15,489 bases of DNA from a virus: the UHGV virus genome UHGV-0097030; one strand, 5' to 3'. This document shows, one piece after another, positions 10,942 to 15,172 of the stretch. Each line of letters opens with the position of its first letter. Within the stretch, counting starts at the first letter, position 1. The notes beneath the pieces are model-generated. The model saw only the letters and a list, made by a program, of their open reading frames with translations, was not told the origin of the DNA and did not search any database. A program made the translations under genes and the position numbers.

Positions 10942-11142
10942 ATGATGACAACGATTGGTGTTCTTTACGACGGGTGGACAAAAGAACGATTAAGACGTCA
11001 TTACAAGATGGCAAAAGTTATCCGCAACAAGCCCTATCGCAATGACTATCGAAAGGTGATGGCAAATAACATGCAGAAGAATATCGACAGGATATTCCCG
11101 CGCGGAAAGGCTGTGTGGCGCTTACTTAAAAATGAGTGGTGA
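10942..11142 (+). CDS. Hypothetical basic protein
   Basis: 66-aa ORF with GGAGA upstream of the ATG pair at 10942/10945. Confidence 0.45.
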   Translation: MMTTIGVLYDGWTKERLRRHYKMAKVIRNKPYRNDYRKVMANNMQKNIDRIFPRGKAVWRLLKNEW

Positions 11143-11474
11143 TGGAGAGGAATATGGACGAATCAAGAAAGCAGTTTGAAGAAAGTTGGTTGCGACGTGG
11201 AGGCGAATCCTCAGACCTTATCCGTTACCCTGAAAATCACCATGAAATTGGCAGCGGTAATATTGGTGGTCAATACGTGATGGACGATGTTCAAGGCCAC
11301 TGGCAAACGTGGCAGGCATCGCGATCAGCTATTGAAATAACCGCGCCAAAGTTTATCGACAGCAGAGAAGCATTAGCCAAAGGGTTTACTGTTGATTATT
11401 CCAATGGCTTCGGTGATGCAATGGATGCTTATGAGGAAAATATCCGCGCTGCTGGAATCAAAGTGAAGGAGTGA
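11142..11474 (+). CDS. Hypothetical protein
   Basis: Track ORF 11136..11474 begins with GTG. ATG at 11142 overlaps the upstream stop (TGATG). An alternative ATG at 11154 has GGAGAGG upstream. Confidence 0.5.
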   Translation: MERNMDESRKQFEESWLRRGGESSDLIRYPENHHEIGSGNIGGQYVMDDVQGHWQTWQASRSAIEITAPKFIDSREALAKGFTVDYSNGFGDAMDAYEENIRAAGIKVKE

Positions 11475-11478
11475 GTAT

Positions 11479-11733
11479 ATGCCATTTATAAAATTAACCA
11501 TGCAATGCAGCATCTATCAGCCACCAAGCACAGGCGTGATAGAAAGCACCAGAAGTGCATATGAGCCCTTGTACGTTAACTCTGACAACATCGAAACCCT
11601 ATTTGAGGCCGGGATTACGATTGTAAGAATGGCAAGTGGTGAGCGGTTCGATGTTATTGAGAAACCAGAAGCTATTTTGGCGTTAATTAATCCATGTGTG
11701 CAGAAGGTGAGCAATGAGGAAACTAACGTTTGA
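11479..11733 (+). CDS. Hypothetical protein
   Basis: 84-aa ORF with AAGGAG 7 nt upstream of the ATG. Confidence 0.5.
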   Translation: MPFIKLTMQCSIYQPPSTGVIESTRSAYEPLYVNSDNIETLFEAGITIVRMASGERFDVIEKPEAILALINPCVQKVSNEETNV

Positions 11734-12130
11734 ACTAAGAAGCCCCATCCATCAGCAGAACGCCATTCAAGCCATCCAGCAAATCCTTCCAGACCCAACC
11801 AAACCAATCGTAGTAACCATTCAGGAACGCAACCGCAGCATTCGGCAAAATGCACGCCTTCACGCGATGCTATCTGAAATAAGTAAGAAGGCTACATATC
11901 ATGGAAAAGCAAGAAATATTGAGTTTTGGAAGGGGTTATTCGTTTCTGGTTGGCAGATTGCAACCAACCAGCACCCTGAGATTATATCAGGGTTAGAAGG
12001 TGAGCTAATAAACATCAGAGAGAGTACGGCGACTCTATCTGTAAAAAAAATATCCGAAATAATGGACTACATAGAAGCATATTGTGCCATGAACTCAATT
12101 CATCTTAGCGAATGGAGGAATTATGATTGA
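11714..12130 (+). CDS. ninB: NinB (Orf-family recombination mediator), mosaic
   Basis: 138 aa. The first 42 residues (MRKLTFELRSPIHQQNAIQAIQQILPDPTKPIVVTIQERNRS) are near-identical to lambda NinB as recalled. The remainder is divergent but alignable (QNxxL...HG...WK) and AT-rich. Confidence 0.75.
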   Translation: MRKLTFELRSPIHQQNAIQAIQQILPDPTKPIVVTIQERNRSIRQNARLHAMLSEISKKATYHGKARNIEFWKGLFVSGWQIATNQHPEIISGLEGELINIRESTATLSVKKISEIMDYIEAYCAMNSIHLSEWRNYD

Positions 12131-12725
12131 GGTTTGGGTAGATATCGAAGGAATTCCATTTTATCAGGTTAGCAATAAAGGAAATTTCAGGTCTATTACG
12201 AGGGAAATTACAGTAACATCAACCAGACAGAGGCCATATAAGAAAATAATTAATGGCACTAGCGTAAAACCATTCAAGTGCAAGTCGACAGGATATCTTC
12301 AAATAAAGGTATACGGTAAGAAATACAGCGCCCACAGGATAGTTGCGAAAGCATTCTGTACAGGGTTCTGTGATGGCTTGGTAGTTAATCACAAAAATGG
12401 GCAAAGAGATGACAATAGGGCTGAAAACCTTGAATGGGTATCACATTCTGAAAACTCAAAGCACGGATATAAACAAAATGGAAGAATACCTATATCGCTA
12501 GGTAAATTTAGTGGTGATCATCCTGCCAGTAAAGCTGTTATTTCTACTGACATGAAAACTGGGGAGGAGGTTTATTATGAAGCAGCTATGGATGCTGTCA
12601 GAGAAGGATTTGATAGTTCGTCAATTAGTCGTTGCTGTAATGGCGAAAGCTCATATCACAAAGGAAGATTCTGGCGATTTGCAAATGAAACAATGAAAGC
12701 GCGATGGGGAGACAGGGCGGCATGA
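12123..12725 (+). CDS. HNH homing-type endonuclease
   Basis: 200 aa. ATG with GGAGG upstream. N-terminal NUMOD4-like [20 protein letters not shown] motif [30 protein letters not shown]-rich. The last residues KARWGDRAA match the lambda NinB C-terminus. Confidence 0.8.
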
Positions 12726-12904
12726 GACGACAGCGACGAAGTATCACCGACATCATCTGCGAAAACTGCAAATACCTTCCAACGAAACGCTCCAGAAATA
12801 AACGCAAGCCAATCCCAAAAGAATCTGACGTAAAAACCTTCAACTACACGGCTCACCTGTGGGATATCCGGTGGCTTAGAGAACGTGCGAGGAAAACAAG
12901 GTGA
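12722..12904 (+). CDS. ninE: NinE
   Basis: Track ORF 12704..12904. ATG 12722 overlaps the HNH stop (ATGA). [23 protein letters not shown]...[21 protein letters not shown] matches lambda NinE as recalled. Confidence 0.8.
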
Positions 12905-13071
12905 TTGACCAAAATCGAAGTTACGAACAAGAAAGCGTCGAGCGAGCTTTAACGTGTGCTAACTGCGGTCAGAAGCTGCATGTGCTGGAAGTTCACGTGT
13001 GTGAGCACTGTTGCGCAGAACTGATGAGCGATCCGAATAGTTCAATGTACGAGGAAGAAGACGATGAGTGA
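12901..13071 (+). CDS. ninF: NinF (small Cys-rich protein), not in ORF track
   Basis: GTG at 12901 overlaps the ninE stop. Hand translation [56 protein letters not shown], lambda NinF-like. Confidence 0.65.
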
Positions 13072-13282
13072 TTCGTTTAGTAGCTCTGATTATTTGTATT
13101 TGGTTTTAGTACCTGTGGCAGAAGTATTCCGCTCTCGATTTCCTGAAGGCTCAGCACCATTTAATGCCATTAGCACTTACTCAAAATGCAGAGTGAAATT
13201 TACAGGTAAGCGGCTGGAAAGAGAGTGGCAGCAATTCTGCAAAAAACATGACCTAAAAAATGACCCTGAACTGGAGTATTAA
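13064..13282 (+). CDS. Hypothetical protein
   Basis: 72-aa ORF. ATG overlaps the ninF 3' end; GAGGAAG upstream. Confidence 0.45.
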   Translation: MSDSFSSSDYLYLVLVPVAEVFRSRFPEGSAPFNAISTYSKCRVKFTGKRLEREWQQFCKKHDLKNDPELEY

Positions 13283-13573
13283 ATGGCTAATCTACGCAAA
13301 GAAGCGCGCGGCAGAGAATGCCAGGTACGTATTTACGGCATATGCAATGGCAATCCTGAAACTACAGTTCTGGCACATTACCGGATGGCTGGAATTTGCG
13401 GAACGGGAATGAAGCCTGACGACCTGATCGGCGCATGGGCTTGTAGCGCGTGTCACGATGAAATCGACCGACGCACCCATAATCTCGACAACAAAGACGC
13501 CAGACTTTACCACCTCGAAGGCGTGATCAGGACGCAGGTGATATTGCTGAAGGAGGGGAAGATTAAGCCATGA
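13283..13573 (+). CDS. ybcO: DUF1364 family protein (YbcO-like, Cys-rich putative nuclease)
   Basis: 96 aa. MANLRKEARGRECQVRIYGICNGNPETTVLAH...CSACHDEIDRRTH closely resembles E. coli DLP12 YbcO as recalled. Confidence 0.7.
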   Translation: MANLRKEARGRECQVRIYGICNGNPETTVLAHYRMAGICGTGMKPDDLIGAWACSACHDEIDRRTHNLDNKDARLYHLEGVIRTQVILLKEGKIKP

Positions 13574-13932
13574 ACGAATATCAGTTTGTGCTTCCATACC
13601 CGCCGTCGGTGAATACCTACTGGCGAAGACGGGGAAGCCAATATTACATAAGCGATAAAGGCCAGAAATACCGAAAAGACGTTCAGCAAATCATCCGCCA
13701 ACTCAAGTTAGACATTTTCACCAAATCACGACTCCGCATCAAAGTCATCGCAGACGTTCCAGACTCCCGCCGCCGCGACCTCGATAACATCCTGAAGGGC
13801 TTACTCGACTCCCTTATCCACGCCGGGTTTGCGGAAGATGACGAGCAATTCGATGACATTCGCGTAATTCGTGGCGTGAAAGTACCAGGCGGAAGGCTTG
13901 GAATAAAAATCACCGAACTGGAGAACGCATGA
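13570..13932 (+). CDS. rusA: RusA Holliday-junction resolvase
   Basis: 120 aa. LPYPPSVNTYWRRRG...RRRDLDNILKGLLDSLIHAGFAEDDEQ...GGRLGIKITELE aligns with E. coli RusA (LPWPPSNNRYYR...RRRDLDNLQKAAFDAL...GGRLELTITEM). ATGA overlap with ybcO. Confidence 0.85.
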   Translation: MNEYQFVLPYPPSVNTYWRRRGSQYYISDKGQKYRKDVQQIIRQLKLDIFTKSRLRIKVIADVPDSRRRDLDNILKGLLDSLIHAGFAEDDEQFDDIRVIRGVKVPGGRLGIKITELENA

Positions 13933-14117
13933 ACGCCACAATTCAAACGATACCAGAGCTTCTTATCCAGACACGAGGCAATCAGACCGAAGTGGCGAGG
14001 ATGCTTTCCTGCGCAAGAGGAACAGTGCTCAAGTACAACCGAGACAGCAAAGGCGAGCGTCACGTAATAGTTAACGGCGTCCTGATGGTCAAACAGGGCA
14101 AGAGGGGTAGACCATGA
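13929..14117 (+). CDS. ninH: NinH
   Basis: 62 aa. GNQTEVARMLSCARGTVLKY...VIVNGVLMV matches lambda NinH (GNQTEVARRLKCSRGTVRKY...AIVNDVLMV). Confidence 0.75.
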   Translation: MNATIQTIPELLIQTRGNQTEVARMLSCARGTVLKYNRDSKGERHVIVNGVLMVKQGKRGRP

Positions 14118-14737
14118 GACTCGAAAGTGTAGCTAAATTTCATTCGCCAAAAAGCCCGATGATGAGCGACTCACCACGGGCCACGGCTTCTGACTCTCTT
14201 TCCGGTACTGATGTGATGGCTGCTATGGGGATGGCGCAATCACAAGCCGGATTCGGAATGGCTGCATTCTGTGGTAAGCACGAACTCAGCCAGAACGACA
14301 AACAAAAGGCTATCAACTATCTGATGCAATTTGCACACAAGGTATCGGGGAAATACCGTGGTGTGGCAAAGCTCGAAGGAAATACTAAGGCAAAGGTACT
14401 GCAAGTGCTCGCAACATTCGCTTATGCGGATTATTGCCGTAGTGCCGCGACGCCGGGCGCAAGATGCAGAGATTGCCACGGTACAGGCCGTGCGGTTGAT
14501 ATTGCCAAAACAGAGTTGTGGGGGAGAGTTGTTGAGAAAGAATGCGGAAGATGCAAAGGTGTCGGCTATTCAAGAATGCCAGCAAGCGCCGCATATCGCG
14601 CTGTAACGATGCTAATCCCAAACCTTACTCAACCCACCTGGTCACGCACTGTTAAGCCGCTGTATGACGCTCTGGTGGTGCAATGCCACAAGGAAGAGTC
14701 AATCGCAGACAATATCTTGAATGCGGTCACACGTTAG
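14114..14737 (+). CDS. Q: Late antiterminator Q (lambda-type)
   Basis: 207 aa beginning MRLESVAKFHSPKSPMMSDSPRATASDS..., matching lambda Q as recalled. Zinc-binding CRDCHGTG...CGRCKG. Immediately upstream of a PR'-like promoter. Confidence 0.9.
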   Translation: MRLESVAKFHSPKSPMMSDSPRATASDSLSGTDVMAAMGMAQSQAGFGMAAFCGKHELSQNDKQKAINYLMQFAHKVSGKYRGVAKLEGNTKAKVLQVLATFAYADYCRSAATPGARCRDCHGTGRAVDIAKTELWGRVVEKECGRCKGVGYSRMPASAAYRAVTMLIPNLTQPTWSRTVKPLYDALVVQCHKEESIADNILNAVTR

Positions 14738-14779
14738 CAGCATGATTGCCACGGATGGCAACATATTAACGGCATAATA

Positions 14780-14808
14780 TTGACTTTTTGAATAAAGTTG
14801 GGTAAATT
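14780..14808 (+). promoter_or_regulatory. PR' late promoter (with qut region)
   Basis: -35 TTGACT (14780-14785), 17-nt spacer, -10 TAAATT (14803-14808). Near-identical to the lambda PR' context TTGACTTATTGAATAAAATTGGGTAAATTTGACTCAACGATGG as recalled. Confidence 0.8.
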
Positions 14809-14844
14809 TGACTCAACGATGGATAAATGCACTCGTTAAATAAA

Positions 14845-14873
14845 GCCCTGAGTTAATAGCTCGGGGCTTTTTG
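14845..14873 (+). terminator. Intrinsic terminator close to PR' (tR'-equivalent)
   Basis: Hairpin GCCCTGAG-ttaatag-CTCGGGGC followed by TTTTTG, about 35-60 nt downstream of the predicted PR' start. Confidence 0.65.
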
Positions 14874-15172
14874 CGTTTTAAGCACGACCTTTCTGAAAGC
14901 GCATCAAACCAAATACCAGACAGACCAAAATAATCACCTTATCCGCTGTGGCTACGGTGCGGTGTGCTTTGCATAAAAGAAAACCAGCGCAATGGCTGGC
15001 TTCGTGAAAGCGGGTGGCAAGAGGTTGCACTAACAACCTCATGCCGTTTTGCCCGTGCATATCGGTCACGAACAAATCTGATTACTAAACACAGTAGCCT
15101 GGATTTGTTCTATCAGTAATCGACCTTATTCCTAATTAAATAGAGCAAATCCCCTCAATGAAGGGGTAGAGC

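Follow-up and report, generated by a model that had tools for sequence, protein, structure and literature searches.

The window analysed here, a 15,489-nucleotide stretch of the UHGV virus genome UHGV-0097030, represents the early part of a lambdoid phage or prophage genome, and its best matches are mosaic (to Escherichia phages such as mEp043, N7 and HK542). Within it, the middle of the recombination gene ninB (orf) has been replaced by a foreign block, which consists of a divergent segment of ninB and a gene for an HNH endonuclease. The last codons of the endonuclease gene are a leftover of the original ninB 3' end. This anatomy, in which a cassette has replaced part of the gene, ninB is chimeric and the nuclease carries a tail derived from ninB, is essentially certain. 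Its probable explanation is that the nuclease gene is a free-standing I-HmuI-like HNH homing endonuclease gene that has spread by gene conversion together with the linked ninB segment. ninB is a textbook recombination gene of phage lambda, and the nin region to which it belongs is a classic example of phage mosaicism.

The locus contains three abutting genes on the plus strand: the mosaic ninB (11714–12130, 138 amino acids, recombination mediator family), the HNH endonuclease open reading frame (ORF; 12123–12725, 200 amino acids) and the right neighbour ninE (12722–12904, Pfam NinE 4.5e-43). Alignment with lambda, which the original prediction had proposed as a way of mapping the breakpoints, places these at 11839 and 12695. 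The left homology arm (11714–11839, plus strand) comprises ninB codons 1–42, which encode a lambda-type N-terminus with a conserved ...QERNRS end, and matches lambda 40644–40769 with 86.6% nucleotide identity in blastn. The encoded residues are identical to lambda at 37 of 42 positions; the switch at codon 42 is as predicted, and the description of this part as near-identical to lambda is slightly generous. Past it, the gene is divergent and AT-rich, again as predicted: residues 43–138 share 25% identity with lambda Orf, and blastn finds no nucleotide similarity to lambda in 11840–12694. The GC (guanine plus cytosine) content of this block is 0.388, that of the flanking arms is 0.48, and that of the lambda-type segment it replaced is 0.51–0.52. 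Homology resumes at the right arm, or scar (12695–12725, plus strand), where 29 of 31 positions are identical to lambda 41054–41084, the last 31 nt of ninB (blastn, pairwise E 1e-8), and it continues in 12729–13066, which corresponds to lambda ninE–ninF with 96% identity. The 855-nt cassette (11840–12694, plus strand) is delimited by the two arms and is made up of foreign ninB codons 43–138 and the HNH gene minus its last 10 codons, while the scar supplies KARWGDRAA and a stop codon as an in-frame C-terminal tail of the HNH ORF. The prediction had described both this tail and the ATGA junction with ninE as identical to the end of lambda NinB. The tail is indeed that of lambda, but in lambda itself ninC, not ninE, comes after ninB, and the ninB–ATGA–ninE junction belongs to other common lambdoid phages.

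Unoccupied alleles of the same locus exist. Two exact 36-mers, one spanning the tail and the ninE start and the other taken from the 5' arm, were searched in IMG/VR contigs. The tail/ninE 36-mer is found in 79 contigs, where it ends a full-length lambda-type ninB in 74 cases and an HNH ORF in one. The 5'-arm 36-mer is found in 73 contigs; in 53 of these a lambda-type ninB continues from it, and in 13 the cassette does. Both 36-mers are present in the loci L203, L213, L258 and L267, 395 nt apart compared to 964 nt in the window, and these four loci are unoccupied versions of the window's own allele, i.e. the insert-free lambdoid phages to which a comparison had been suggested. Homology between them and the window stops at 11839 and restarts at 12695, with none for the cassette. 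Because of this pattern, the event is a replacement, in which 284 nt of lambda-type ninB gave way to an 855-nt foreign block. The left arm is 97.6–98.4% identical to that of the HNH-less L213, L258 and L267. In L203, the 42-residue N-terminus of NinB is identical to that of the window and is followed by lambda-type sequence, with no HNH gene; this locus matches the window upstream in 11154–11839 (89%) and downstream in 12695–13071 (98%) and 13282–15168 (96%). With both arms shared by HNH-less alleles, the proposal that a divergent 3' part of ninB and an HNH gene recombined into a lambda-like ninB, fusing the old 3' end to the endonuclease, holds.

The KARWGDRAA tail is a remnant rather than a part of the enzyme, because it is missing in a diverged copy of the cassette in Salmonella phage SEN22 (the HNH protein of which ends in ...RFADERMAA, without KARWGDR), lies beyond the I-HmuI homology, which stops near residue 186, and forms a low-confidence helix in the AlphaFold2 (AF2) model (predicted local distance difference test, pLDDT, of 54). 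The nuclease can thus do without the tail. Many distant homologues also end in ...AA, some of them with Trp-containing tails, which could mean that the resemblance to NinB is due to chance or that the tail is intrinsic to the HNH family. This reading is effectively refuted by the near-complete nucleotide identity of the tail to lambda ninB and by the 74 contigs in which the junction 36-mer ends a full ninB, as well as by the two comparisons with SEN22-type copies and I-HmuI given above. The tail of one distant homologue, P0014 (...SDASRLEIEWATRWGKS), resembles lambda sequence. Tails of this type hint that HNH ORFs may have run out into the 3' end of ninB more than once, and do not settle their deep origin. 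In L229 and L254 (reverse strand), an unrelated ORF ends at the same tail/ninE junction and IS3-family transposase genes lie upstream; this locus is probably a rearranged or deleted cassette.

The chimeric NinB is complete. It matches the Pfam NinB family (PF05772) over profile positions 2–129 of 131 with 137.8 bits (2.5e-40), above the gathering score, as well as lambda Orf (1PC6; phmmer 1.4e-31) and PHROG 72. Its R-S-x-x-Q-N motif is present, and the position of lambda W50 is occupied by His, as in most sampled members of the family. Most sampled HNH-less NinB proteins also read QNARLHAML, which rules out the notion that His at this position marks an HNH-linked subtype. The foreign NinB is natively short, because the proteins of L182 and L183, which are 70% identical to its C-terminal part and are followed by ninG with no HNH gene, end at the equivalent position. 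A truncation of the foreign NinB by the HNH insertion is ruled out on the same grounds. More generally, the C-terminal tails of NinB proteins are between 6 and 23 residues long, both with and without an HNH gene. In L092 and L097, the NinB ORF ends in ...SVKKYPK* directly after a run of eight A residues (A8; 12043–12050 in the window, plus strand), and the HNH gene starts 60 nt downstream and is uncoupled. The A8 run is possibly a slippage-prone tract.

The HNH gene has its own start signals. A GGAGG ribosome-binding site, read directly from the sequence, lies at 12114–12118 (plus strand) inside the last ninB codons (EWRNYD) and is separated by a 4-nt spacer from the ATG at 12123. The two genes overlap by 8 nt (ATGATTGA), with the ninB stop (12128–12130) overlapping HNH codons 2–3, in agreement with the translational coupling that had been predicted. 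At the other end, the ninE ATG at 12722 overlaps the HNH TGA (ATGA). In 11000–13500, matches to promoter and terminator consensus sequences show no excess over shuffled sequence, and Rfam, group I introns included, gives no match up to E = 1. With its own start and ribosome-binding site, no intron and no excess of promoters or terminators, the HNH gene is therefore free-standing and expressed within the nin operon. An intron-encoded endonuclease is ruled out by the Rfam search, a cassette with its own promoter or terminator finds no support in the consensus matches, and a terminase-associated HNH protein is ruled out by the position in the early nin operon and by the domain architecture.

This architecture is that of I-HmuI, the endonuclease of Bacillus phage SPO1. 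As predicted, the 200-residue protein contains a NUMOD4 domain (residues 3–63, 51.2 bits, Pfam cut-off 23.4) and an HNH motif (HNH_3, residues 69–112, 45.0 bits, cut-off 24.8). They are followed by a helix-turn-helix (HTH)-like region (residues 145–181) similar to the I-HmuI NUMOD-like C-terminal domain, although its score of 19.3 bits is under the Pfam cut-off of 27. Residues 55–186 align with I-HmuI (PDB id: 1U3E) in phmmer (4.7e-14), and in Foldseek the AF2 model, with a pLDDT of 87, has 1U3E as its top and sole significant match (E 2.8e-12, probability 1.0). His90 (codon 12390–12392) corresponds to I-HmuI H75 and Asn111 to N96, and 25 homologues all share H90, N98, N102 and N111. The original prediction had hinged on homology of the 3' end of this ORF to the lambda ninB 3' end and on HNH catalytic residues; the former was found, as described above, and the latter are represented by H90 and N111. 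The residue set is compatible with activity, and the enzyme may, as the original prediction had allowed, be either active and selfish or domesticated. Between lineages, the nonsynonymous divergence (pN) is 0.13–0.25 and the synonymous divergence (pS) is saturated at 0.74–0.97, and this purifying selection indicates that the protein has been kept functional over a long time. Judging by its sequence and predicted fold, the enzyme looks intact. The best PADLOC model for the protein is the generic 'homing endonuclease', beside a weak match to the ZorE HNH, which gives no support to an anti-phage defence system of a known type. Not all copies of the gene elsewhere are whole: it is interrupted in L098 (1663–3465), where a 326-residue transposase ORF is found, and in L010 (3001–4395, from Mixta), where it carries an IS1-like insertion. 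Both are cases of nuclease gene decay in prophages.

The same cassette is found in many other genomes. The pair of 138-residue NinB (NinB138) and 200-residue HNH protein is present in 63 phage records, including Lahn2 (ORF138/ORF200), Stx2-converting phage 86, vB_EcoS_P27, TL-2011a and APC_JM3.2, where the genes are annotated as 'NinB' and 'HNH endonuclease'; the corresponding RefSeq names are 'recombination protein NinB' and 'NUMOD4 domain-containing protein'. Among 5426 complete Escherichia coli genomes, 77 carry the cassette, full length in all and with at least 98.8% identity. The replaced lambda-type segment occurs in 1307 E. coli genomes (1491 places) with 90–100% identity. In other words, about 5% of the places with lambda-type ninB flanks in complete E. 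coli genomes hold the cassette, many Shiga-toxin prophages among them. The copy in phage SEN22 is more distant, with 86% identity in NinB and 78% in the HNH protein. An alignment of the 5' junctions shows that every cassette copy has a common sequence from codon 43 on and that the boundary, which is sharp, lies after CGCAACCGCAGC (the RNRS motif). Upstream of it there are at least four different 5' arms: a lambda-identical arm (APC_JM3.2, L073, L074, L087 and SEN22), the arm of the window and phage 86, a chimera of these two types (L181) and an unrelated NinB N-terminus (L077). Cassette copies that are 98–100% identical occur behind all four. The right neighbour is ninE, dam, ninC or ninD, and the polymorphisms in the 31-nt tail differ by context. 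In E. coli ETEC1720 (L343, NZ_CP122859.1), which has a cassette 100% identical to that of the window, a gene for a 203-residue 'HNH endonuclease' (1715–2326) lies immediately upstream of ninB, so that ninB is bracketed by nuclease genes.

Beyond these near-identical copies, the window protein belongs to an HNH clade that resides next to NinB. Homologues with at least 40% identity were gathered from viral, genomic and metagenomic contigs, with at least four close relatives coming from the genomic scan, and derive from Enterobacteria, Serratia, Pseudomonas and the alphaproteobacterium Camelimonas, as well as, to judge by protein names, from Aeromonas. Every HNH lineage with at least 137 bits against the window HNH protein directly follows NinB or DUF1367. 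Among the 19 distinct lineages examined, the HNH start is always within a few bases of the stop codon of a NinB-family gene or, in three of them, of a DUF1367 gene. HNH genes below approximately 38% identity do not adjoin NinB. The identity of the HNH proteins to that of the window is 40–65% while that of the partner NinB drops to 17–39%, and the two proteins would seem to have different rates or histories. Their co-divergence is described by a Spearman coefficient of 0.17 and a Pearson coefficient of 0.49, values to be read with the saturation of NinB identity in mind. The N-terminal third of the HNH protein covaries with the upstream gene, which may be a matter of target specificity or of linkage and is not used as evidence here.

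The ninB site accommodates nucleases of other types as well. Some members of the NinB138 clade are accompanied by this HNH gene, some by none, and two by other HNH_3 endonucleases at the same place. The latter are L178 (2369–3329) and L184 (2369–3239), relatives of NinB138 with 77% and 64% identity, respectively, in which a different HNH_3 endonuclease devoid of NUMOD4 comes next; the ORF of L178 has a weak AP2 match, and its end (AKNQAIEWASRFGDKQRAAA) resembles the lambda NinB C-terminus. In L077 (1934–3603, same contig as L284), codons 1–32 of a lambda-type ninB are fused in frame to an HNH_3–AP2 endonuclease ORF, followed by a NinB138-type gene with another N-terminus (MKCVKYHLTNESIRYNAIQYL...), a NUMOD4–HNH gene with a KARWGDRVA tail and ninE. 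Because such various HNH types sit there (L178, L184, L077 and ETEC1720), ninB is a hot spot for HNH endonuclease genes. L099, L101 and L102 (approximately 2544–3585) carry a member of the window's own HNH clade (63–68% identical) after DUF1367 in the same nin slot. Compared to the window, its N-terminal third is 44–56% and its C-terminal third 84% identical, and these nuclease genes are mosaic in their turn. An arm–middle–arm mosaic pattern of the same kind is also present in another host group: the HNH-less NinB of L054 from Pseudomonas (5533–5931) has ends that match the HNH-linked NinB of L125 and L119 and a different, lambda-like middle.

The following sequence of events would account for the locus. 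The cassette would have entered a common lambda-type ninB–ninE backbone via homologous recombination, with the left crossover within the conserved first 126 nt of ninB and the right crossover in, or at the edge of, its last 31 nt. The outcome is a NinB that is chimeric but complete, together with an HNH ORF that runs through nine leftover NinB codons into the ninE ATGA. Both alleles may meet in one cell, either in a mixed infection or when a phage infects a cell that already harbours a prophage. The nuclease, which would be produced from the nin operon through its translational coupling to ninB, would then nick or cut the lambda-type ninB allele. With the cassette allele as the template for repair, the nuclease gene would be copied along with the divergent ninB segment, the latter being presumably a cleavage-resistant version of the target region. 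We infer the activity of the enzyme, the location of its target in lambda-type ninB and the role of cleavage, as opposed to ordinary recombination, in the spread. Homing is favoured because there are empty sites, because one near-identical cassette is spread over several backbones at low frequency and with low diversity, because the clade is specific to one site, and because different HNH genes cluster at ninB. For nuclease-dependent super-Mendelian inheritance with co-conversion of flanking markers, the sequence data give indirect indications, namely the identical cassette in different backbones and the chimeric 5' arm of L181. A further reason to favour homing is that Barth et al. 2023 (PMC10448857) report nuclease genes located where stretches of DNA exchanged between phages begin or end.

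Several points weigh against intronless homing. No cleavage site could be predicted, and at the position of the I-HmuI metal ligand D74 most members of the clade have Asn (N89), with Asp in a few. Some prophage copies are broken by insertion sequences (L098, L010) or frameshifts (proteins P0004, P0006). With 31 nt, the right homology arm is shorter than would be expected for repair of the RecA type. The sharp left boundary may be no more than the point at which two types of ninB cease to be homologous, which needs no cut, and lambdoid phages swap modules at such joints without nucleases. The last of these points lead to an alternative that we regard as unlikely, namely ordinary lambdoid mosaicism, in which the nin module is exchanged by general or Red-mediated recombination at short conserved sequences (the ninB 5' end and the ninB 3' end with the ATGA linker) and the HNH gene is carried along passively, being inactive or of no importance for the exchange. 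Both boundaries of the cassette are homology ends of this kind, the right neighbours of the HNH-less lambda-type ninB are just as varied (ninC in lambda, NinE or Dam, as in H116 and H132), the Pseudomonas NinB of L054 is mosaic without any HNH gene, and the broken copies also fit a gene of no consequence. A passive passenger, however, would hardly be under clear purifying selection in lineages with saturated synonymous sites, nor would its clade keep to a single genomic position in Enterobacteria, Pseudomonas, Aeromonas and an alphaproteobacterium. Ordinary exchange also fits poorly with the clustering of at least three different HNH types at ninB and with a cassette diversity below that of the allele it replaced.

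The clade-wide and always translationally coupled adjacency to a highly divergent NinB, which is the remaining point against homing, also fits a conserved functional unit. In such a two-gene module for the initiation of recombination in proteobacterial temperate phages, a nickase would be coupled translationally to NinB/Orf (or DUF1367) and the homing pattern would be secondary; this is the main alternative that involves no selfish element, and we find it improbable. The start/stop-overlap adjacency is kept in at least 16 NinB lineages, down to a NinB identity of 17%, and Orf-like domains fused to HNH domains (DUF968) have been described (PMC4118853). Furthermore, the propagation of phage PhiNM1 is reportedly aided by its NinB-like–HNH protein Gp16, a nickase that depends on RecA (PMC12817073). 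It is conceivable, if doubtful, that the nickase of the module gives the nick or gap at which Orf loads RecA or Red-beta, or that it attacks host or competitor DNA. That the module is a split counterpart of the NinB-like–HNH fusion Gp16 of staphylococcal phages seems similarly far from probable, as the fusion proteins have a zinc-finger IscB-like HNH and not the I-HmuI architecture (PMC12817073). Other observations also weigh against the module. Close relatives in the NinB clade have no HNH gene (L182, L183) or unrelated HNH types (L178, L184), the same HNH clade also comes after DUF1367 in place of NinB, about 95% of the E. coli places with lambda-type ninB flanks are without HNH, and the NinB-derived tail is not conserved. 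Homing of a free-standing endonuclease with its linked ninB segment thus continues to be the reading that we favour.

Two other features of the window deserve a mention. Upstream, an ORF of 84 residues (11479–11733, plus strand) shares 20 nt with the start of ninB. Its product matches Pfam FlbD, a flagellar/swarming protein, with 25.5 bits, barely over the cut-off, and PHROG 8458 ('flagellar protein', moron category) with 5e-40, and is an odd gene for the nin region. Downstream, a gene for the putative nuclease YbcO (13283–13573, plus strand, Pfam 3.8e-44), a homologue of which is called DUF1364 in RefSeq and 'HNH endonuclease' in SEN22, directly precedes and overlaps a gene for a RusA-like resolvase (13570–13932, plus strand), so that the operon contains a second small nuclease-like gene.

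Annotations of both cassette genes exist in numerous records, many Shiga-toxin phages among them, and elements of this kind, in which a free-standing gene for an HNH homing endonuclease lies at a mosaic joint, are known. The literature search returned no paper on the breakpoints, on the ninB-derived tail or on the clade-wide link between HNH and NinB. The locus offers breakpoints resolved to the base pair, natural empty-site alleles and one cassette in several independent backbones. It is therefore a convenient natural system, in tractable lambdoid phages, for asking whether homing endonucleases actively create the mosaic joints of temperate phages. According to PMC10448857, experimental work of this kind has so far dealt mostly with T4 and ICP1. 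The cassette may also bias recombination between co-resident lambdoid prophages.

The closest known systems include the phages Lahn2, 86, vB_EcoS_P27, TL-2011a and APC_JM3.2, which carry the same cassette with 97–100% identity. In their records, unlike in the window, the HNH gene is followed by dam or ninC, and the 5' context is a different one. At the level of the protein, a close parallel is I-HmuI (1U3E), with which the window nuclease shares the order of domains (an N-terminal beta DNA-binding part, the HNH motif and a C-terminal HTH-like part), the catalytic His and the Asn metal ligand. I-HmuI is a nickase encoded in a group I intron of a DNA polymerase gene. In contrast, the window gene is free-standing between ninB and ninE with no intron detected, and its product, which is 29% identical to I-HmuI, has Asn at the D74 position and a nine-residue tail from the host gene.

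DUF968 and Gp16 (PhiNM1) of Gram-positive phages likewise combine a NinB/Orf fold with an HNH domain in the phage early region (PMC4118853, PMC12817073). They are, however, single polypeptides with a zinc-finger IscB-like HNH, whereas the window has two ORFs, an I-HmuI-type HNH with no match to the CxxC/CxxH zinc-finger pattern, and an HNH type that comes and goes independently of NinB. There is also a likeness to the T4 SegF, SegG and Mob family of intronless homing and marker exclusion, where a nuclease gene also lies beside or within a conserved gene of DNA metabolism. As with the free-standing homing endonucleases of T4, the nuclease gene of the window has divergent neighbouring sequence that travels with it, a presence/absence polymorphism between genomes that are otherwise similar and a position at a mosaic boundary. 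SegF, SegG and the Mob family are of the GIY-YIG or other HNH types, and their cut sites have been mapped experimentally. The window cassette differs from them in being known from sequence alone and in the extent of its co-travelling segment, which makes up about two-thirds of the heterologous allele rather than a few polymorphisms.

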